IMG/VR virus record: IMGVR_UViG_3300010429_001449
From: a virus
Taxonomy: Duplodnaviria; Caudoviricetes
Strand: one strand, 5' to 3'
DNA: 64,000 nt
Under the pieces are notes generated by a model. That model was not told the DNA's origin, ran no database searches, and saw nothing but the letters and a program-made list of their open reading frames with translations. The position numbers were made by a program, and so were the translations under genes. How positions within the stretch are numbered: position 1 is the stretch's first letter; each line of letters begins with the position of its first letter. Below are positions 11,501 to 42,960 of the stretch, in pieces.

Positions 11501-12181
11501 TCAAACACGATCCGGGTGTTGTTCCCGAAACGTCTTGTCCCACGCTGCGGGATCGGAGAAGTAGTCAGAAACCTCGGCAGGCACGAGGCCGCTGTTATGG
11601 AGGCTGTCAATGTTCGCTAAGGAAAGAAGCTCGACGCCGTGCTCTTTGAGCGCCTTCTCGCCGCCCTGTTGACGATCAAAGACGACCATACAAAGCTTCA
11701 CCTCAGCGCCAGCTTCGCGGAGAGCTTCAATGAACTCCAGCTTGCTGCCCGCGTCTGTTATCAGGTCTTCGACCAGAACCACACGGCGGTCTTCGACCGA
11801 CGCGCCTTCGACCTTGCCCTTCGTACCGTATTCTTTCTGCGCCTTGCGGACGTAGGCCGAGGAGAGACCCATCGAAGCTGCGAGACGTGTGGCGAACGGT
11901 ATTCCTGCGCTCTCGCCGCCCGCGATGACGGGGAAAGGAGGCTTCTCCAGCAGGATGTATCCGCGCCTCGGCTCGTAGTCAAACTCAGCAAGGGCATAAT
12001 GAAAGAGACCCGTGACCAGACTCATAACAGCGGGATCGCTGATGAGTTTCCGGCAATCGAAGTAGACCGGACTCAGCAAGCCGCTCTTGAGCGTGAACGG
12101 TTTGATAGTGCTGATACGCAGGGCGTCGCAGCGTACCAATGCGTCTACAACAACATGTCCGACGGGAGAGTTCTTGTTCAT
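11501..12181 (-). CDS. pyrE: orotate phosphoribosyltransferase
   Basis: FTLKSGxxSPVYFDCR, YVRKxxKxYG, PRPP loop VVLVEDLITDAGSK. Confidence 0.92.
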   Translation of the reverse strand: MNKNSPVGHVVVDALVRCDALRISTIKPFTLKSGLLSPVYFDCRKLISDPAVMSLVTGLFHYALAEFDYEPRRGYILLEKPPFPVIAGGESAGIPFATRLAASMGLSSAYVRKAQKEYGTKGKVEGASVEDRRVVLVEDLITDAGSKLEFIEALREAGAEVKLCMVVFDRQQGGEKALKEHGVELLSLANIDSLHNSGLVPAEVSDYFSDPAAWDKTFREQHPDRV

Positions 12182-12253
12182 CCTACGGCTTCCTTTCATT
12201 TCACAACTTAGGTTCTGTCTACTGCCGAGCACTCCACAACTTAGGTGTGATAC

Positions 12254-12985
12254 TCATGGCTTTAGTTTCTCAATCCATTCCTTCGCCGCCGCCGTAGGGT
12301 CTTCTGCGCCGTAAATCGCGGAGCCGATGATGGGATACCAGTCGAACGGAGGAACCTTGCCGATGTAGATTTTGGCTTCGTCGACCTCGGCCTGCTGCCT
12401 TCCGAGTCCGGGCGTATAAACGTTGATCGGCTCTCCCTCAAATCCCGGACACTCGGTAGAGTTGTAGGCGTCCCACAAAACAGTCGCATAATGCAGTTTA
12501 GTCGCGGGCAAAACGAAGCTGCGGACGCCGCACTTAAGCGCCTCTGTGAACACACGCTTCGGCATGTCATCGGAGAGGAAACCGCCCTCGGACACTAAGA
12601 ATTCCGGGTGCGTCATCACTGCGCCTACGATGAGATCGTGCACACAGTTCTGTGTCAGCCTCCGCCACGCACGACACCAATGCCGGAGAGTATCGGGGCC
12701 TGCGAAAGGAAAAATGATCGTTCCTCTTGCGCCCGACCGGGCGCACATACTCAGCAAAGGTTCAGCCATCTGCGGAATATCAGTGCCCGCCTTTTGATGG
12801 TCGTAGATCACAGGCTTATCGGAAAGTGTGTTAATCTCCGCGACCGTTTTGCGCAAGGACGCTTCGAGGGCTAGGAGAGACCCGATCTTAAACCCGGCCA
12901 CGCCGTCTAGCTGTCCCGTAGAACGAGCGAGAACTGGGAGTTTCTCGAACGGCACATCACACGCGATCACGATTCCTTTGAACAT
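12254..12985 (-). CDS. pyrF: orotidine-5'-phosphate decarboxylase
   Basis: IACD, GFKIG, YDHQKAGTDIP, MTH, PATK, TPG.G.Q, IIGSAIY; next to pyrE. Confidence 0.85.
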   Translation of the reverse strand: MFKGIVIACDVPFEKLPVLARSTGQLDGVAGFKIGSLLALEASLRKTVAEINTLSDKPVIYDHQKAGTDIPQMAEPLLSMCARSGARGTIIFPFAGPDTLRHWCRAWRRLTQNCVHDLIVGAVMTHPEFLVSEGGFLSDDMPKRVFTEALKCGVRSFVLPATKLHYATVLWDAYNSTECPGFEGEPINVYTPGLGRQQAEVDEAKIYIGKVPPFDWYPIIGSAIYGAEDPTAAAKEWIEKLKP

Positions 12986-13129
12986 ACACCTGTCTCCTTT
13001 GTCGCTGCGGGCAACAGTACGTAGTTTCCGCGCACCAGAAAGTTCTATCAAATTGGGCGGGAGAAAATGGGCGGTTGGTGGGTAGTTGAAACACGCCTCA
13101 GCATCAGCATAACGCTGATCTCCAAGAAG

Positions 13130-13215
13130 TGGTGGGCGAGGGGAGATTTGAACTCCCACGCGGTTTCCCGCACCAGTGCCTGAGACTGGCTCGTCTGCCT
13201 TTCCGACACTCGCCC
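13130..13215 (-). tRNA. tRNA-Leu(CAG)
   Basis: Cloverleaf with long variable arm, CCAGT-CTCAGGC-ACTGG, encoded CCA. Confidence 0.92.
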
Positions 13216-24168: not shown

Positions 24169-24233
24169 CACACAACTCCTGTAAAAACTACGAAAAAGCA
24201 TCGCTACAACAGCGACGTAACACCGCAACGAAA

Positions 24234-24311
24234 TGGTCGGGGTGGCCGAAATCGAATCGGCGGCCTCCAGTACCCCAAACTGGCGCTCTAACCAGACTGA
24301 GCTACACCCCG
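24234..24311 (-). tRNA. tRNA-Pro(GGG)
   Basis: CCAGT-TTGGGGT-ACTGG, C1:G72, encoded CCA. Confidence 0.9.
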
Positions 24312-24319
24312 GAAGAAAG

Positions 24320-24397
24320 TGGTCGGAGTGGCGGGACTTGAACCCGCGACCTCGTGGTCCCGAACCACGCGCTCTACACAGGCTGAGCTACACTCCG
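24320..24397 (-). tRNA. tRNA-Pro(CGG)
   Basis: CGTGG-TTCGGGA-CCACG, encoded CCA. Confidence 0.9.
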
Positions 24398-24408
24398 ACG
24401 AAGAAGAA

Positions 24409-24490
24409 TGGCCGACGAGGGTGTAGAGAGGTTTGTTTTGGCGCTCCCTTGCGGGGGCAGGTAACATGTACTCCCTACGGCATTCGGCCA
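24409..24490 (-). ncRNA. short Y-RNA-like RNA (copy 2)
   Basis: UGGCCGA-AUGCC-GUAGGGAG-UACAU...AAAC-CUCUCUAC-ACCCUCG-UCGGCCA; GNCGAANG motif. Confidence 0.7.
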
Positions 24491-24495
24491 AAAGA

Positions 24496-24575
24496 TGGTC
24501 GGAGCGGCGGGAATCGAACCCGCGAAAACCTCTCGGTCCCAAGCCGAGCGCTCTACCAAGCTGAGCTACGCTCCG
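24496..24575 (-). tRNA. tRNA-Pro(TGG)
   Basis: CTCGG-CTTGGGA-CCGAG, encoded CCA. Confidence 0.9.
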
Positions 24576-24579
24576 TTTG

Positions 24580-24850
24580 CTTACAAAGACCGGCGCGGCA
24601 ACGCCGGTCTCCGTGGAAAGGATTCCAATGTCCAAACAGACGGCGGCGCGTTACAAAGCCACACGCCGTGGGCAAAACGTCATGCGCCGCCTCGAAAGAC
24701 GGCGCAGGTACTCCTTCCACACGTGGTGGATGAGCAAAGAGTTATAACGCACAGCAACCGTGTTGATCAAGCACGGCGGCACGTACTCTTGTGCGCCGGA
24801 ACTACCTCTCGACATTCGACTGCCGCCGGTACGCGCTTGTCGAGAGACGC
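24580..24850 (-). ncRNA. putative structured ncRNA
   Basis: Run of hairpins including a UUCG-capped one; no credible ORF; between tRNA genes. Confidence 0.4.
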
Positions 24851-24857
24851 TGTTGAC

Positions 24858-24934
24858 TGGTCGGGACAGTACGGAGTCGAACCGTTAATTTCCGAGCCTC
24901 GCGGTCGGCGTACTGCCGTTGTACTATCGTCCCG
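24858..24934 (-). ncRNA. atypical tRNA-like RNA (Pro-type acceptor, no canonical anticodon loop)
   Basis: CGGGACGA/CUGUCCCG-ACCA, D arm GUAC/GUAC, T loop UUCGACU, anticodon arm capped CC-GCGA-GG. Confidence 0.65.
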
Positions 24935-24943
24935 AAAGAGAAC

Positions 24944-25018
24944 TGAGTCGACGAGGATCGCAAGAGACGTTTGGTAGTCCACAACGGGGCATGTAGTCCC
25001 TCGCTGGCATTCGACTCA
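24944..25018 (-). ncRNA. short Y-RNA-like RNA (copy 3)
   Basis: UGAGUCGA-AUGCCA-GCGAGGGAC-UACAU...AAAC-GUCUCUUGC-GAUCCUCG-UCGACUCA. Confidence 0.7.
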
Positions 25019-25023
25019 AAAAC

Positions 25024-25198
25024 TGGTCGGACGAGGAAGGATTCTACCTTCATCTTCCGGGCGCAGAGCTATGGGTACGCTCGGCTGTTCTAGTTGAACT
25101 ACTACTGAGACACCTCCGAGAGTCGGTATTGAGACGCCTGCCCAAAGCAGGCATCTCAACCATTTACTCTACCGGGCTACGTCTCATTGGGTCGTCCG
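25024..25198 (-). ncRNA. 175-nt tRNA-like RNA with ~87-nt hairpin insertion
   Basis: CGGACGA/UCGUCCG-ACCA, UA-GUUC/GAAC D arm, GAAGG/CCUUC T arm; long inserted stem. Confidence 0.65.
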
Positions 25199-25205
25199 TA
25201 ATCAA

Positions 25206-25218
25206 GTTATCAAAGAGC
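25206..25218 (-). promoter_or_regulatory. boxA-like element
   Basis: GCTCTTTGATAAC. Confidence 0.7.
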
Positions 25219-25228
25219 GTCTGTTCCT

Positions 25229-25256
25229 AGTATAACGGAGATACGCATAATGTCAA
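25229..25256 (-). promoter_or_regulatory. sigma70-type promoter
   Basis: TTGACA-16bp-TATACT. Confidence 0.85.
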
Positions 25257-25278
25257 GAGACATTTTGCAAAAATCGCC

Positions 25279-25320
25279 AAAAGAAAAGGCGGCCAAGGTG
25301 GGGGCACGCCCTGACCGCCT
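25279..25320 (-). terminator. intrinsic terminator
   Basis: AGGCGGTCAGGG/CCTTGGCCGCCT followed by TTTCTTTT. Confidence 0.75.
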
Positions 25321-28065: not shown

Positions 28066-29631
28066 TCAGGACGGAAAACCTCTGCTGACCCAATCGATAG
28101 CCTTCTTGGTGCGGGCCAACCGTTCTGCTTCTTGTCTAGCCAGGGCGAGAGCGTCGTCCCGCGAACGAATCGTTCCTTCTAGTTGCGCGTCCTGTACAGC
28201 CGTCAAGACCTCGCTGAATATTGGACTGGGCGAGAAGCCCATCGCAATAAGGTCGTGTCCGGTCAAGAGCGGTTTCGGCTTCACCTGTTCGGGAGGAAGC
28301 TCTTCTTTCTTGCGCCGGAGCCACTCGTAATCCGAAAGATCGCCGTTGCTTCCCACAGCATCGGCGCGATGAAGGGCCAGCAACCGGTCGAACAGAGGAT
28401 GCGCCATAATGCGCTTGAGCTTGGACAACTTCATGTCCTTGGCGTACGTCGGCACTAAGTGATGCTCAACAAGCCACTGGATAGCCTCAACATCAGCGTT
28501 GCTGAGCCTCATCCTCTTGCCAATCTCTCCTATCATCTCGGCCCCGACATCCTCATGTCTGTGGAACGTGATCCGCTGTTTGGCGTCGTTGAAGGCTTGT
28601 GTCTTAGGCTTGCCCACGTCGTGAAGGAGAGTAGCCCACGTCAAGACCAGATCGCCTTTAGGTTCCAGCTTATCCAGCATCAAAAGCGTGTGTTCCCATA
28701 CCGTACCTTCGGGGTGGAAGTCTTCCGGCTGCTCAATACCCTTCGTGGCGGCCATCTCGGGAAGCACTTTATCCAAAAGGTTCAAACCGTCGAGCAGCCG
28801 GAGTGCTTGCCCCGGATGTTGCGTTTGAAGCATCTTCCCTAACTCGTCGGTTATACGCTCTTGGCTGATGCCCGTGATCTTGTCCGCGTTGCTCTTTATG
28901 GCGTCGGCAGTCTTCTTGTCCATCTCGAAGCCGAAACGCGCCGCAAAACGGACGGCGCGGAGCATACGGAGATAATCCTCTGCAAATCGGTCATTAGGGT
29001 CGCCTACGGCGCGTAAGACGCCGTTTTCCAGGTCTTGTTGGCCTCCAACGTAGTCGATGACCTTCTTCTCTTTGGGGTCGAAAAACAAGGCGTTTATCGT
29101 GAAGTCGCGCCGCTCAGCGTCTTTTTCAGCGGTCGAGAAGCTCACTTCGTCCGGATGCCGTCCGTCCGCATATCCGCTTTCAGTCCGGAAGGTTGCGATT
29201 TCAAACTCGTCATCTCCATCTCGAACCCTTGACACGCCGAAGGCTTCCCCCGCAAACTTGGATTCGGGCCATATCTTGGAAACTTCGTCCGGCGTCGCGG
29301 AAGTTGCTATGTCTATGTCGTGACAGTCACGACCGAGAAGCATGTCTCGCACACAGCCGCCCGCAAAATAGGCTTCATGCCCGGCGTCCTTCAAACGCTC
29401 AACAATGTTCGTGGCGGCTTTGCCTTGCTGGGAATCGAGAACCGCCGCCCAAGCATCTTCTTTGATCTTCTTCTCGGGCTTCTTTTCTTCTTCTCCTTCA
29501 GCGGCTCCGGCGGCAGAAGTAAACTGCCCGGTTTCAGGGTCTTTGCATCTGCTGCCTGGTTTACCGGGAGCGATTTGACACGGCTTGTCGTCGGCTTTCC
29601 TGAATGCTGTTTGTATCCAATCATAGGGCAT
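28066..29631 (-). CDS. cca: CCA-adding tRNA nucleotidyltransferase with HD domain and YDW leader
   Basis: AGGCVRD, DIDIAT, RRDFTINA, EDYLRMLRAVRF, QERI, LLHDVGKP. Confidence 0.92.
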   Translation of the reverse strand: MPYDWIQTAFRKADDKPCQIAPGKPGSRCKDPETGQFTSAAGAAEGEEEKKPEKKIKEDAWAAVLDSQQGKAATNIVERLKDAGHEAYFAGGCVRDMLLGRDCHDIDIATSATPDEVSKIWPESKFAGEAFGVSRVRDGDDEFEIATFRTESGYADGRHPDEVSFSTAEKDAERRDFTINALFFDPKEKKVIDYVGGQQDLENGVLRAVGDPNDRFAEDYLRMLRAVRFAARFGFEMDKKTADAIKSNADKITGISQERITDELGKMLQTQHPGQALRLLDGLNLLDKVLPEMAATKGIEQPEDFHPEGTVWEHTLLMLDKLEPKGDLVLTWATLLHDVGKPKTQAFNDAKQRITFHRHEDVGAEMIGEIGKRMRLSNADVEAIQWLVEHHLVPTYAKDMKLSKLKRIMAHPLFDRLLALHRADAVGSNGDLSDYEWLRRKKEELPPEQVKPKPLLTGHDLIAMGFSPSPIFSEVLTAVQDAQLEGTIRSRDDALALARQEAERLARTKKAIDWVSRGFPS

Positions 29632-29646
29632 ACACAAACATCTCCA

Positions 29647-31518
29647 TCAATAAAGATCGAACACGCCTTCTTGAACCAGGCGGCGCAGGCGGCTGACACG
29701 CTCGTCGATCTCGTTCCCATAAAACCCGTGCCGCAACAGAGTACGACGGAACGCGCTGACGTTCACGTTTTTCAGCTTCTCGTACACATCGTCAGCAATA
29801 GGTTGCTGGTGCAGGGGATAACCGAAACTTGTTGCTCGGAACGTCCCGTAGTACATACCGCCATTGTCGATAGCAACGACTCGTCCCTTTTCCGTCAACA
29901 TAATATTGCCGCCGTGTCGATCCGCGTTCAACATAATCGCATCCAGCGCTAATATTCTGTGCAGCCAACCACTATCTTCGCTATCCAAAAACGCATTCGT
30001 GCTGACCGCTGGCATCGCATCAGCGATATCAAAGTTATCGGGGAACCCAAGACGATTAACGTCCGTCTGCAAAGAGACGCCTTGGAATGACCCATGCTTA
30101 TGCGCAAATTCGCCGCCCAAATTGGCGGTAGGAGGCACTATATTGAAGCCCAGGACTTGATCGATGTCGTAAGCAGCCTCCTCAGCGTATGCCGTTCCGT
30201 GCTGCGCATTGAGTTTGCACAGCGCTCGGCTACCGTCTGCTGTAGTGAGCCAGAACGTAGTGTTTATACCGCCGCTTTCGCTTAATTCCTCTCGATCACC
30301 GGGTTCCGCCTCCGCGAGCGCGGCTTCGAGAATAGCCTTGTTAGCGGGTGATCCCAGCGGAATGTCGTCGGGAGTGCTTGCGCTAATGCGCCCAATGGTC
30401 TCTCGCGTTTGTGCCGCGCTCTCCAGTTGCTGCTCGGTTGCAAGAGTTAAGTCGTCTCCTTCAGAGGCGATCTTGTGATCGAGCACAGCGGCAAGAGCAG
30501 TAACGCCCAAGAGGACTAATGATTTCCCACGGCGCAACCCTCTAATGAACATCTCAGTCTCTTCTGCGATGATCTGGGAATCTCCGTCAGGAGCGTACTT
30601 GGCAAGCCATCCACTCACGTCCTTCTTGTAGCTTTCAACCTCAGAGTCGTCGGCAATAAGCGCGTCAGTCCGCTCCTCCACAGCGAACATACCAAACAAC
30701 TCCTTCACAACAGCCGCCTCGATACGATACTCATGCGCTATATTCTGTATGCGCCCCGCCTGCGCGGAACCGCCGGTCTTGGCAAGATTAATCGCCCATA
30801 GCGTAGAATAAGGCGTTCCCTTATAGGTCAACCCACCAACCACAGCGCTCGCTATCTGCTCGTAGATTTGAATGTCAGCCGGACCTACATAACCTTGAGT
30901 ATAGTTGTACGACGCCTTGACCGAGGCTACCGAAATACCATTCTGAAGACACTCTTCGTTGTATTCATCAGCCGCTTGCTTTAGGGCATCGCGCTCAGCG
31001 GCAGGAACAGCGCCGGTCTTGTCCAACGCTGCCGAGAAGAACTCTGAAATAATCTCATCCTTACTAAGATTACCGGCTCTAACGCGATCAAGAAGATTTT
31101 GGTAAGCTGGGGTGTGATAAAGCTCGTCCTGAGACCAGTGAAACACGCGCCCTATTCCCATGCCGTCGTAGACACTATCTAACACCGCATGAACACCGGC
31201 AGTATCGCCGGGGCGCAATGCACCAAGGGCGTTAATCTTGTCAGACGCAGCCTTGTAAACGCTCTCCCCTAAAGCGCTTGATTCCACGCCGTAACCTTGA
31301 TCGCGCCTCCGGGATATCTCGCGTTCCTTGGTGGAGGACTTCCTTTCTTCGCTCCTGTGCTGTGACGCCTCCGCTCCTTGCGCAGTACCTGCTCTGCCCG
31401 CCGACGTAAACTCACCCGTAGCAGGATCGTGACAACGATTCCCCACTCTGCCGGAGCCGCGACTGCACTCGCTCTGCTCCTGCTTCTCCAGCGCGTACTT
31501 GATCCAATCGTAGATCAC
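29647..31518 (-). CDS. YDW-leader protein with C-terminal PI3/4-kinase/HipA-like kinase domain
   Basis: GGIN, K, EEAAY..D..LG...VPPT, NADRHGGN, AIDNG. Confidence 0.8.
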   Translation of the reverse strand: MIYDWIKYALEKQEQSECSRGSGRVGNRCHDPATGEFTSAGRAGTAQGAEASQHRSEERKSSTKEREISRRRDQGYGVESSALGESVYKAASDKINALGALRPGDTAGVHAVLDSVYDGMGIGRVFHWSQDELYHTPAYQNLLDRVRAGNLSKDEIISEFFSAALDKTGAVPAAERDALKQAADEYNEECLQNGISVASVKASYNYTQGYVGPADIQIYEQIASAVVGGLTYKGTPYSTLWAINLAKTGGSAQAGRIQNIAHEYRIEAAVVKELFGMFAVEERTDALIADDSEVESYKKDVSGWLAKYAPDGDSQIIAEETEMFIRGLRRGKSLVLLGVTALAAVLDHKIASEGDDLTLATEQQLESAAQTRETIGRISASTPDDIPLGSPANKAILEAALAEAEPGDREELSESGGINTTFWLTTADGSRALCKLNAQHGTAYAEEAAYDIDQVLGFNIVPPTANLGGEFAHKHGSFQGVSLQTDVNRLGFPDNFDIADAMPAVSTNAFLDSEDSGWLHRILALDAIMLNADRHGGNIMLTEKGRVVAIDNGGMYYGTFRATSFGYPLHQQPIADDVYEKLKNVNVSAFRRTLLRHGFYGNEIDERVSRLRRLVQEGVFDLY

Positions 31519-36548: not shown

Positions 36549-37745
36549 TTAGCCCAAAGGCTGCTTATCGAAAGTCCACTGAGCAACTCTGACCGCATCA
36601 CGATCTCCGCAGACCTTACCCACATCGTCACTGAGTTTGACGACCGGAACACCGGCGCATTTGGTCATCTTGATGACCATATTGAGCGCGGGAGACCCAG
36701 GAATATCATTGGTCAAATGTGTCCCAATCCCGAAAACGGGTTTGATGTAACCGTTGAAATGCTTCTGTAGAGCAAGCACCTTCTCTACGTTGAGGTTGTC
36801 ACTGAATACGACCGTCTTTGTCTGCGGGTCCAACCCGAGCGTACGGTAATGCGCAATGACCTGCTCACCGTGATGAAACGGATCGCCGCTATCTTGACGA
36901 ACACCGTCGTACAACCGGGCCAGCGAAGCGTCGAAGTCGCCCAAGAAAGCCGCCGTTCCGTAAGTATCCGTCAAGGCAATGCCGAGAGCGCCCTTGAAAG
37001 TCTGCGCCCATCGCTTTAGCGCGAAACGATTGACGTGTCGAAGGCCATCCAAGGCGCTGCATCCCATGAACCATTCGTGCGCCATCGTGCCGATGGGACG
37101 CAACCCCAGCTCACGCGCCAAGAAGACGTTGGACGTGCCCAAGAAATTGCTGAGAGAGGCGGGAGTGCTCACTATGGCCTGAAACACGCCCTTGTGGATA
37201 TCAAAGCTCCGCCTCCGCCGTGTCCCAAAATCGGCCCACTGACAACGGGCCTCGCCGAGAGCGGCGGCTTTTCCTCGGGCAGCGCATCCTAGCTCACCGA
37301 ACGCAAGCCCGCCGGGAGTCTTGTCAGCGTCGTAATAACGGAAGTAAAGCTCGCTGAGCATTGCCAGCAGCGGCACTTCCCACAAGATCGTGCGCTCCCA
37401 CGGGCCGCGAATAGAAAGGCAAAGCGCACTGTCGATCACATCGGTACTGACCGTCGTCATAAAAACTTCGTCTGGATAGAAACGATACGCACGAAGATAG
37501 TTCAGATACGTCCGGCTGAGGTAAGGACAATGCGCCTCTAACCACGCATACTCAGCAAGACTGAGCGAGAAGTCGCGCATGTTACGCACTCCAGCAATAA
37601 GGTCTTCCAACAGCGAGTGCGTGACCGGCTTCATACCACCGCGACAGATGAATTCGTACTCGACTTCGACGCCGGGGAAGTGCTCAAGCACCGCCTGCTG
37701 CATTGTGAACTTGTAGAGGTCGTTGTCCAGAATGCCTTGTATCAT
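36549..37745 (-). CDS. pncB: nicotinate phosphoribosyltransferase
   Basis: DNDLYKFTMQQ, DFGTRRR, GTSN, GTMAHEW, GVRQDSGDP, FGIGT, KLSD. Confidence 0.95.
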   Translation of the reverse strand: MIQGILDNDLYKFTMQQAVLEHFPGVEVEYEFICRGGMKPVTHSLLEDLIAGVRNMRDFSLSLAEYAWLEAHCPYLSRTYLNYLRAYRFYPDEVFMTTVSTDVIDSALCLSIRGPWERTILWEVPLLAMLSELYFRYYDADKTPGGLAFGELGCAARGKAAALGEARCQWADFGTRRRRSFDIHKGVFQAIVSTPASLSNFLGTSNVFLARELGLRPIGTMAHEWFMGCSALDGLRHVNRFALKRWAQTFKGALGIALTDTYGTAAFLGDFDASLARLYDGVRQDSGDPFHHGEQVIAHYRTLGLDPQTKTVVFSDNLNVEKVLALQKHFNGYIKPVFGIGTHLTNDIPGSPALNMVIKMTKCAGVPVVKLSDDVGKVCGDRDAVRVAQWTFDKQPLG

Positions 37746-41717: not shown

Positions 41718-42960
41718 GTGACTGCTCCCACGAGTAAACTCGCGGGCTTCTAGGCCGAAGCCAAAGTGTGCAATCCCACACTTAAGATGTTTCGAGCCGC
41801 ATTCAAATCTCTTCCCAGAACCAATCCGCAATCTGAACAGCGGAATTCTCGCTCCGCGAGACTCAGCTTGTGAATCGCTCCGCAGGAAGAACAAGTCTGG
41901 GACGTATAAGCTGGATTCACCTTCACGACTGTCCTTCCGGCACTTTCAGCCTTGAAGCACAGATGCTCAACGAAGGTTCTCCACGCTACGTCCGCTATCG
42001 ACTTGCTCAACTTGAACGGCTTGCCATTAACCAACATCTTCTTCGTGTTGAGGTCTTCAACACACAGGACGCCGTAGGCGTCTACGAGCCTTCGGCTCGT
42101 TTGATGACAGAAATCCTTCCGCCTGTTCCCGATTCGCTCGTGAACGAGGGCTGCCGAATGTCTATTCTTGTCAGAAGGGGTCTTTGACTTCCTTCTCTGA
42201 ACCTGAGCAAGAGCTTGCTCATCTTGTTTGAAAAACCGAGGGTTCGGAACTGTCTCTCCGGTTGAAAGCGTAGCAAAACTGGAAACTCCGAGGTCGATTC
42301 CGACCGTGTCGTCGTTTTTGGGAAGTTGTTCCGGTTCAACGTCGGAGATGAAAGTAGCGTACCATTTCCCGGTAGCAGTACGGCTAATCGTCAATCGTTT
42401 TACAACGCCTTCGATTTGACGGTGAAGAACAATCGGGATATCCCCGACTTTGGAAAGATGAAGTTTATCCCCTTCAAGCCGGAATGATCCGTTGTTTTGC
42501 GGATGAGTGAATGAGTTGTACCAACCCTTTCCACGGAATCGGGGATAGCCGGGCTTTTCCCCCGCCTTGACACGACGGAAGAAAGCTTTGAAAGCAAGAT
42601 CGAGTCGCATCCCTACTTCCTGGAGCGCCTGTGAATAAACTCCTTTGAGGAACGGTCTCTGTTGCTTGAGTGCAATAAGGCTGTTGTGTTGCTCGTACAA
42701 TCCCACTGATTTCTTGTTCTGTTCCCATTCCGTTTTCCGCTGGGCAAGGAAATGGTTGTACAGCCAACGGCACTCAGACAGAATGTTCACCATGCGGCTC
42801 TGTTGAGCCTTGCTCGGATACAACCGATACCTGAATGCTTTCATCATTATCCTCAGTATATCAGGTCTTATTATGCGTGTCAAGCAAAATTGCATAATAT
42901 TTTTCCTAACTCGCTCTCATCCCATGACTAAAGTCGTGGGCTTTCCCGCTCGTTTCGTAG
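41718..42960 (-). mobile_element. IS200/IS605-family element with tnpB only (IS1341-like); left boundary approximate
   Basis: Left hairpin AAGCCCACGACTTTAGTCATGGG; right hairpin AAGCCCGCGAGTTTACTCGTGGGAGCAGTCAC. Confidence 0.8.
41750..42847 (-). CDS. tnpB: RNA-guided endonuclease TnpB
   Basis: KAFRYRLYP, GIDLG, VEDL, TSQTCSSCG, CSDCG...RDLNAARNIL. Confidence 0.95.
   Translation of the reverse strand: MMKAFRYRLYPSKAQQSRMVNILSECRWLYNHFLAQRKTEWEQNKKSVGLYEQHNSLIALKQQRPFLKGVYSQALQEVGMRLDLAFKAFFRRVKAGEKPGYPRFRGKGWYNSFTHPQNNGSFRLEGDKLHLSKVGDIPIVLHRQIEGVVKRLTISRTATGKWYATFISDVEPEQLPKNDDTVGIDLGVSSFATLSTGETVPNPRFFKQDEQALAQVQRRKSKTPSDKNRHSAALVHERIGNRRKDFCHQTSRRLVDAYGVLCVEDLNTKKMLVNGKPFKLSKSIADVAWRTFVEHLCFKAESAGRTVVKVNPAYTSQTCSSCGAIHKLSLAEREFRCSDCGLVLGRDLNAARNILSVGLHTLASA

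Follow-up and report, generated by a model that had tools for sequence, protein, structure and literature searches.

The RNA operon and its occurrence in two phages

The element analyzed here is a 175-nt RNA gene on the minus strand (25198 to 25024) of a 64-kb stretch of DNA, hereafter the window, which forms part of a giant phage and recurs with identical sequence in anaerobic-digester metagenomes, where it stands on contigs as long as 269 kb. The genes around it are oriented on the minus strand, and a single RNA operon spans 25256-24199 on this strand. The operon opens with a sigma-70-type promoter, TTGACA-16 nt-TATACT (25229..25256, 11 of 12 consensus positions matched); the same promoter type lies upstream of the element's homologue in a related phage (contig L017, see below) and of the phage's Y-RNA operon. 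Next comes a boxA-like leader read from the sequence, GCTCTTTGATAA (25207..25218), which we take to resemble the boxA of rrn operons and of lambda, and the element (25024..25198) is the first RNA behind it, in the order reported by the first-pass annotation. It is followed, all on the minus strand, by a mini Y-like RNA (24944..25018), a 77-nt tRNA-like RNA (24858..24934), an RNA of ~280 nt without assignment (24576..24857), and a 3′ part comprising tRNA-Pro(UGG), a second mini Y-like RNA (24409-24490), tRNA-Pro(CGG), tRNA-Pro(GGG), and a terminator.

Several genes of RNA metabolism lie nearby. A CCA-adding enzyme with an HD domain (28066-29637, minus strand; assigned with Pfam) is encoded 3 kb upstream of the element, and a tmRNA gene lies 2.6 kb downstream; as part of the same cluster, the tmRNA suggests that the host is a bacterium. 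The gene for Ro60 (rsr; vWA_Ro60; 505-2277) is on the same strand as the element, 22.7 kb downstream, and beyond it lies the Y-RNA operon, which the Rfam YrlA model matches with E = 1.8e-10. The CCA enzyme and a PI3/4-kinase-like protein (29647-31518, minus strand) have a common N-terminal leader of ~50-65 residues, 43% identical over 47-67 residues across both phages, and a stand-alone protein of 86 residues (P0230) matches this leader. The window also encodes a TnpB/IS605 OrfB-type protein (41750-42895, minus strand; Cas12f1-like_TNB, OrfB_IS605, and HTH domains), and nucleotide/NAD salvage proteins (11501-13159 and 36549-37745, minus strand), namely a phosphoribosyltransferase, an OMP-decarboxylase-like protein, and a nicotinate phosphoribosyltransferase. 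The stretch 24190-25300 is present in anaerobic-digester DNA runs of two further studies and in two activated-sludge RNA libraries, whose contigs are identical to the window; the phage thus lives in wastewater systems.

Among 5.8 billion proteins, the CCA enzyme has a single close relative, P0002, with 73% identity. The 13.7-kb contig that carries it (L017) is syntenic with the window through the kinase, the CCA enzyme, five ORFs, the promoter, the boxA-like leader, and the element; between the two phages, protein identity ranges from 44 to 78% for the kinase-like protein, the CCA enzyme, and the ORFs next to them. The first-pass annotation had called for a covariance search, and the single-sequence model R1 matches a 176-nt stretch at the syntenic site (L017:11871-12046; 37 bits, E = 1e-8). 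The boxA-like leader of this homologue reads GCTCTTTGACAT, its distance to the element is unchanged, and GUUUUU directly follows the CCA in both phages. A JGI contig, L018, carries a sequence identical to the L017 homologue, and the other contigs of the window phage (L010, L011, L014-L016) are identical and hold no added variation.

Wider searches returned no third copy. A 28-mer of the element's 3′ end has no exact match in IMG/VR; CCA-enzyme relatives there are at most 37% identical, and model R1 has no match in the three of these records that were searched whole. The two flanking ORFs have no relatives in IMG/VR, and in the set of 5.8 billion proteins their other relatives come only from the second lineage. 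Myxococcus phage Mx1, which has the nearest Ro60 (38.8% identical), carries no homologue of the element, and when both operons were compared by blastn with 50,697 phage records, only tRNA-Pro matched, or nothing. A third lineage was reached through the kinase-like protein P0125, on a 3.5-kb contig that stops short of the RNA operon. The pattern GTAGTTYAAC-N30-50-AGATGARGG occurs in 31 viral and 107 genome stretches; matches of model R2 in four of them (L020, L028, L029, and L043) were rejected as ordinary tRNAs with a spurious 5′ extension, and the others were partial or weaker. The architecture was thus found in two phage lineages only; nothing more emerged from IMG/VR, from the collection of 50,697 phage records, from Mx1, from a scan of one metagenome, or from searches of two protein sets.

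The neighbouring RNAs have features of their own. The 77-nt tRNA-like RNA (L017:12053-12129 in the related phage) is called "tRNA-Ser cga" by ARAGORN; in its anticodon arm, GCGA caps a closed helix whose stem covaries between the phages (CCGA/UCGG vs GCUA/UAGC), CCGCGAGG is invariant, U33 is missing, and the homologue scores 30.1 bits with the Rfam tRNA model. Judged by these features, it is the second conserved non-decoding tRNA mimic of the operon. The ~280-nt RNA, between this mimic and tRNA-Pro(UGG), corresponds to L017:12130-12405; over the initial ~118 nt and a 31-nt block farther on, the two phages hardly differ, and conservation there exceeds that of the flanking RNAs, and RNAalifold gives 55 pairs, 11 of them compensatory, with nothing in Rfam at or near gathering scores. 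Both mini Y-like RNAs carry the Ro60 motif GNCGAAUGC, UACAUG, and a closing strand with CCUCGUCG, and resemble the eight Y-operon units (L014:6990-8330); their absence from the operon of the related phage suggests lineage-specific insertion into a tRNA operon. One unit of the Y operon, just before the window start (L014:7585-7711), matches positions 5-66 of the Rfam tRNA model at 50 bits directly behind the UACAUG of its handle, so that helix grafting onto tRNA bodies recurs in this phage.

Fold and covariation of the element

The minimum free energy (MFE) fold of the element (numbered such that window position equals 25199 minus element position) is a five-armed cloverleaf of -73.5 kcal/mol; none of 200 dinucleotide-shuffled sequences was as stable (z = -4.70), and the homologue adopts the same shape (z = -3.66). 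The first-pass annotation had described a 175-nt tRNA-like RNA with a long hairpin insert, and all helices named there are present on the minus strand at 25024-25198, the anticodon arm excepted. The acceptor 5′ strand CGGACGA (element positions 1-7; 25192..25198) pairs perfectly with 25028-25034 both in the sequence and in the MFE fold, as had been proposed for CGGACGA and UCGUCCG-ACCA. The 3′ side (25024..25035) consists of an unpaired C (25035), the acceptor 3′ strand UCGUCCG, a discriminator A, and an encoded CCA. The homologue keeps six of the seven pairs, one with a compensatory change (A-U to G-C); the G72 partner of C1 is deleted, which leaves an acceptor of 6 bp followed by A-CCA.

A linker, CCCAA (25187..25191; ACCUGC in the homologue), unpaired in the MFE fold, connects the acceptor strand to an 81-nt rod (25106..25186; element positions 13-93), an irregular long hairpin between tRNA positions 7 and 8 that is highly stable when folded alone (z = -6.45). 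From its base helix UGAGAC/GUCUCA the rod continues through GCCC/GG-GGU and AGAGU/ACUCU to a tip hairpin of 13-15 bp with the loop UUUGG; the insert helices and the UUUGG-loop terminal hairpin of the earlier description are thus borne out. The rod of the homologue has 79 nt, the same layout, and z = -4.0. MAFFT was unable to align the two rods, and MAFFT with RNAalifold on the rods alone found no common structure because their sequences do not align; nevertheless, each folds alone into a long hairpin, and the two hairpins agree in layout and almost in size (81 vs 79 nt), so that selection acts on the shape of the rod rather than on its sequence. The first-pass annotation had allowed that the insert might be a mobile repeat found elsewhere and missing from homologues. 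That prospect failed twice: no second copy of the rod occurs in the window or in this phage's other sequence examined, and the homologue has a rod.

Beyond the rod, a second linker, GUAGUA (25100..25105; UAAGUA in the homologue), has its final two bases in place of U8 and A9, and leads into the D arm GUUC-AACUA-GAAC (25087..25099; MFE), which lacks G18 G19. In the homologue the D arm is GUUU-AACAGGAA-AAAC, with GG present and one compensatory pair (C-G to U-A), and the block GUAGUUYAAC is conserved between the two copies. For the anticodon-like arm (25057..25084), the MFE fold and covariation replace the enlarged arm proposed earlier (GAGC-9 nt-GCUC) with a 9-position stem, CCGAGCGUA/UGCGCCCGG (8 pairs and one A.C mismatch), closed by the 10-nt loop CCCAUAGCUC. 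The corresponding stem of the homologue, UCUGCUGUG/CGCAGCAGA, differs by five pairs changed on both sides and has G-C at the site of the A.C mismatch; the loop is not conserved, having 9 nt (CUUAGGGUA) in the homologue vs 10 nt in the window. The variable region AAGAU (25052..25056; GAGAU in the homologue) is 5 nt long, with a U at the U48 position. In the T arm, GAAGG-UAGAAU-CCUUC (25036..25051; MFE), the stem GAAGG/CCUUC stands as first annotated, and its loop is a non-canonical one of 6 rather than 7 nt (UAGAAU). The T arm of the homologue, GAGGG-UUCGAGU-CCCUC, has a canonical T loop and one compensatory pair (A-U to G-C).

With the core alignment anchored by the conserved blocks GUAGUUYAAC and AGAUGARGG, the core helices contain 8 compensatory changes in 25 pairs (one each in the acceptor, D, and T stems and five in the anticodon-like stem), and no pair is broken except that of position 1. 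Over all 55 pairs of the two sequences, 97.2% of cells are paired, and 21 changes are double-sided, compared with 0-2 in controls slid by one to three columns; 13 of these changes lie in the rod and weigh less, because the rod alignment was fitted to the structure where MAFFT alone fails. As only two lineages are known, each of these counts represents a single comparison. The compensatory changes show at the sequence level that the element is a conserved structured RNA, and hence a maintained one, the related phage having kept the same design.

This pattern bears on the possibility that the element is merely a decaying tRNA-Pro duplicate with an insertion and without function. Such decay would account for the loss of the T-loop and D-loop signatures and of the anticodon loop in the window copy, for the loss of G72 in the homologue, and for an occurrence in only two lineages. 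However, the near-intact pairing of the core and its 8 compensatory changes are not expected of a decaying gene, and the size of the rod has been kept (81 vs 79 nt) even though the two rods cannot be aligned and, over the same period, identity among the surrounding proteins has fallen to 44-78%. We therefore consider decay very unlikely.

tRNA ancestry, decoding, and splicing

The Rfam tRNA model (RF00005) matches the core of the homologue with 30.6 bits (gathering score 29), in an alignment that places the acceptor 5′ strand on the wrong bases; over the window copy it has no match at E ≤ 10, and ARAGORN makes no tRNA call on the element. The homologue core contains positions corresponding to U8, A14, A15/U48, and G18 G19, together with the T loop UUCGAGU and its G53-C61 pair. 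The ends of the element (C1:G72, A73, CCA) match the tRNA-Pro genes of the same operon, the loop of the homologue contains UUAGGGU, which resembles a tRNA-Pro anticodon loop, and the best alignments of the core are to the neighbouring 77-nt tRNA-like RNA and to tRNA-Pro. The first-pass suggestion of a tRNA-derived RNA with an added domain is upheld by the score of the homologue core, by the tRNA-Pro-like ends, and by the retention of the rod in both lineages. These sequence features show that the element derives from a tRNA, its origin most likely being a duplicate of a tRNA-Pro gene of this operon.

Compared with a canonical tRNA or with the phage's own tRNA-Pro (RF00005), the element shares C1:G72, A73, CCA, the U8/A9, A14, A15, and U48 positions, and the 5-bp T stem, but differs in its 81-nt rod at the 7/8 junction, its 9-bp anticodon stem, and its 9-10-nt loop. 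The window copy has the tRNA-type end features (a 7-bp acceptor stem, A73, and an encoded CCA) and differs further in the extra C between the T and acceptor stems and in lacking the T-loop and D-loop signatures. The elbow signature (a UUCRANY T loop plus G18 G19) is present in the homologue (UUCGAGU, AACAGGAA) but not in the window copy (UAGAAU, AACUA), where both halves of it have been lost together. The CUA and UAG of the D and T loops of the window copy could pair instead, although a complementarity of three bases is within chance. Having lost the canonical T loop and the GG of the D loop, the window copy may be a poorer substrate for enzymes that read the elbow, such as RNase P and the CCA enzyme.

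A decoding tRNA has a 5-bp anticodon stem and a 7-nt loop with U33 and an anticodon. The corresponding arm here has a stem of 9 positions and loops of 10 and 9 nt; with a stem that exceeds the normal length by four to five pairs and a loop that differs between the phages, the element is unable to decode. The MFE stem, its covariation, and the divergence of the loops together show this.

We also considered whether the gene is that of a working tRNA, restored when protein splicing removes an intervening sequence. In favor of this, the insert forms a hairpin of its own at a single defined site, between flanks that pair into a good acceptor stem. Non-canonical archaeal tRNA introns lie outside position 37/38, have bulge-helix-bulge flanks, are removed by the splicing endonuclease, and leave a normal tRNA. 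Like them, the element has a tRNA-type sequence interrupted by a hairpin elsewhere than at the anticodon, whereas neither the bulge-helix-bulge, nor removal by an endonuclease, nor a normal tRNA product holds for it. At the boundaries of the insert, CCCAA and GUAGUA flank the same helix end at a multi-helix junction, with no bulge-helix-bulge. When the rod is deleted in silico, ARAGORN calls nothing in the window copy and gives inconsistent results for the homologue (His, or Arg with an intron); the deletion leaves no usable anticodon arm, and the 9-bp stem persists. A Pfam scan of 30 window ORFs, out of a genome of roughly 269 kb, found neither RtcB nor a splicing endonuclease, and the bacterial host suggested by the tmRNA gene in the same cluster likewise argues against protein splicing of this kind. 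A group I or group II intron, which the first-pass annotation had already set aside, is contradicted by the lack of an Rfam match and by the insert being a simple 81-nt hairpin.

A 414-nt contig from an activated-sludge RNA library covers 24768-25181, including most of the rod, with zero differences, and is colinear with the DNA over the 3′ junction of the rod, with no joint seen; such contigs may stem from contaminating DNA, and rare forms can escape them. The RNA-library contigs do not include the promoter, the first 17 nt of the element, or the upstream ORF, and are not evidence of a transcript start. Taken together, these points make the protein-spliced intron proposed in the first-pass annotation extremely improbable.

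Possible partners and roles

The phage's investment in Ro60 raises the question of whether the element is a Ro60 partner, that is, a Y-RNA-type molecule with normal tRNA topology in which the rod or the terminal stem would serve as the handle and the tRNA-like part as the effector module, as in YrlA. Besides Ro60 itself (505-2277) and a Y-RNA operon with Rfam YrlA matches (E = 1.8e-10), the phage has two mini Y-like RNAs with GNCGAAUGC and UACAUG interleaved in the operon of the element; in addition, the terminal stem CGGACGA/UCGUCCG is similar to the P1 consensus of Rfam YrlA, and the rod tip begins with GGUUGAGAUGCC, similar to the phage handle GGUUGAAUGC. The element and YrlA (RF02553) are alike in being non-decoding and in joining a tRNA-like module (D arm, T arm, and acceptor-like stem) to a long helix, and YrlA, like the element, occurs in phages with Ro60 and is co-transcribed with tRNAs. 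In Mycobacterium smegmatis, YrlA is cleaved by RNase P and then receives CCA (Chen et al., 2014, PMC4201824). YrlA is, however, permuted, ending in the Ro60-binding stem with its acceptor-like stem capped by a loop, whereas in the element the ends form a normal acceptor stem, CCA is encoded, and the long helix sits at the 7/8 junction as a closed hairpin.

The Ro60 contact motif of YrlA, GNCGAAN0-1G near the 5′ end (PMC4201824), is absent from the element, which has GACGAC-CCAAUG in the window and GACGGACC (GACGGA) in the homologue, and the variants in the rod deviate from it too. RF02553 has no match over the element at E ≤ 10, whereas the true Y units of this phage do match; the operon of the homologue is without any Y-like unit; the element lies 22.7 kb from rsr, albeit on the same strand, compared with within 4 kb for known YrlA genes; and the rod is fully paired where Y handles carry an internal loop. 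Owing to the likenesses of the terminal stem and of the rod-tip GGUUGAGAUGCC to the Ro handle, we keep Ro60 binding as a rival, albeit an unlikely one.

The position of the element behind the promoter and boxA-like leader, the same in both phages, could also reflect a function in cis, as a leader and processing module. The rod would then offer an RNase III-type site and act with boxA in antitermination and in the release of the downstream RNAs, in the manner of rRNA-operon leader stems. A module of this kind would fit the rod tip, whose 13-15 bp form an almost perfect duplex, and the conserved GUUUUU spacer behind the CCA. Yet the acceptor stem, CCA, T arm, and D arm would be superfluous in a leader and are the best conserved parts, and the rod is a closed hairpin that does not enclose the downstream RNAs. 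A leader function is distinctly unlikely on these grounds.

The reading that we favor, with a probability of roughly 55%, is that the element is a stable non-coding RNA derived from a tRNA and processed like one, a non-decoding tRNA mimic whose proposed partner is a tRNA-binding protein. Such a role is the most likely because both expansions make ribosomal decoding impossible. The parts that the maturation machinery reads are retained, namely an acceptor of 6-7 bp, A73, CCA, the T arm, and the core of the D arm. The 5′ end would be cut from the operon transcript by RNase P, the 3′ end would arise via the trimming route, and the CCA end would be kept intact by the phage's own CCA-adding/HD enzyme. 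The two expansions, namely an 80-nt rod between positions 7 and 8 and an anticodon stem lengthened from 5 to 9 bp, would exclude the RNA from translation and may bind a second partner. On the tRNA-like upper half, the CCA end and the elbow would be presented to a tRNA-binding protein, for instance a phage enzyme, or a toxin or sensor of the host directed against tRNA ends. We infer from this design both the processing route and a role as decoy or tether.

A more specific proposal concerns two of the loops: the tip loop of the rod may pair with the anticodon-like loop and have co-evolved with it, making a rigid tRNA-based scaffold that shows its CCA and hides its anticodon. In the homologue, CCUAA at the rod tip complements UUAGG of the anticodon-like loop at five of five positions, with p = 0.005 for random loops, or ~0.03-0.1 when the six loop pairs are allowed for. 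In the window, the match of the rod-tip UGG(G) with (C)CCA is not significant (p ~0.28, or 0.07 with the closing G). By such pairing, the RNA would be held in a closed, three-sided form, or copies would be linked head to tail, and the scaffold could trap or tether a protein that binds tRNA ends. Loop-loop pairing would also explain why the lengths of the rod (81 vs 79 nt) and of the stem (9 bp) were kept despite sequence drift. We give it a slim chance.

Mimics of tRNA are already known in phages, as YrlA and as the species 1 and 2 RNAs of T4. The latter (rnaC and rnaD) we take to be enlarged, non-decoding stable RNAs of the T4 tRNA cluster that are co-transcribed with tRNAs and whose function stayed unknown for decades. 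No sequence relation to the element was found, whose operon matched the phage collection only at tRNA-Pro. Among the Rfam families and the papers retrieved, none matched an RNA that combines the ends of a normal tRNA with a doubled anticodon stem and with a helix inserted at the 7/8 junction.

The element adds evidence that phage tRNA clusters, usually seen as aids to codon usage, also hold maintained non-decoding tRNA mimics. Ro60, Y RNAs, a tmRNA, and an enzyme for CCA repair are further investments of the same phage. Should the element bind a host factor directed against tRNA ends, it would represent an RNA-based counter-defence; should it bind Ro60, the definition of Y RNAs would have to be widened. 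In either case, the element offers a natural design for tRNA-scaffolded RNAs.
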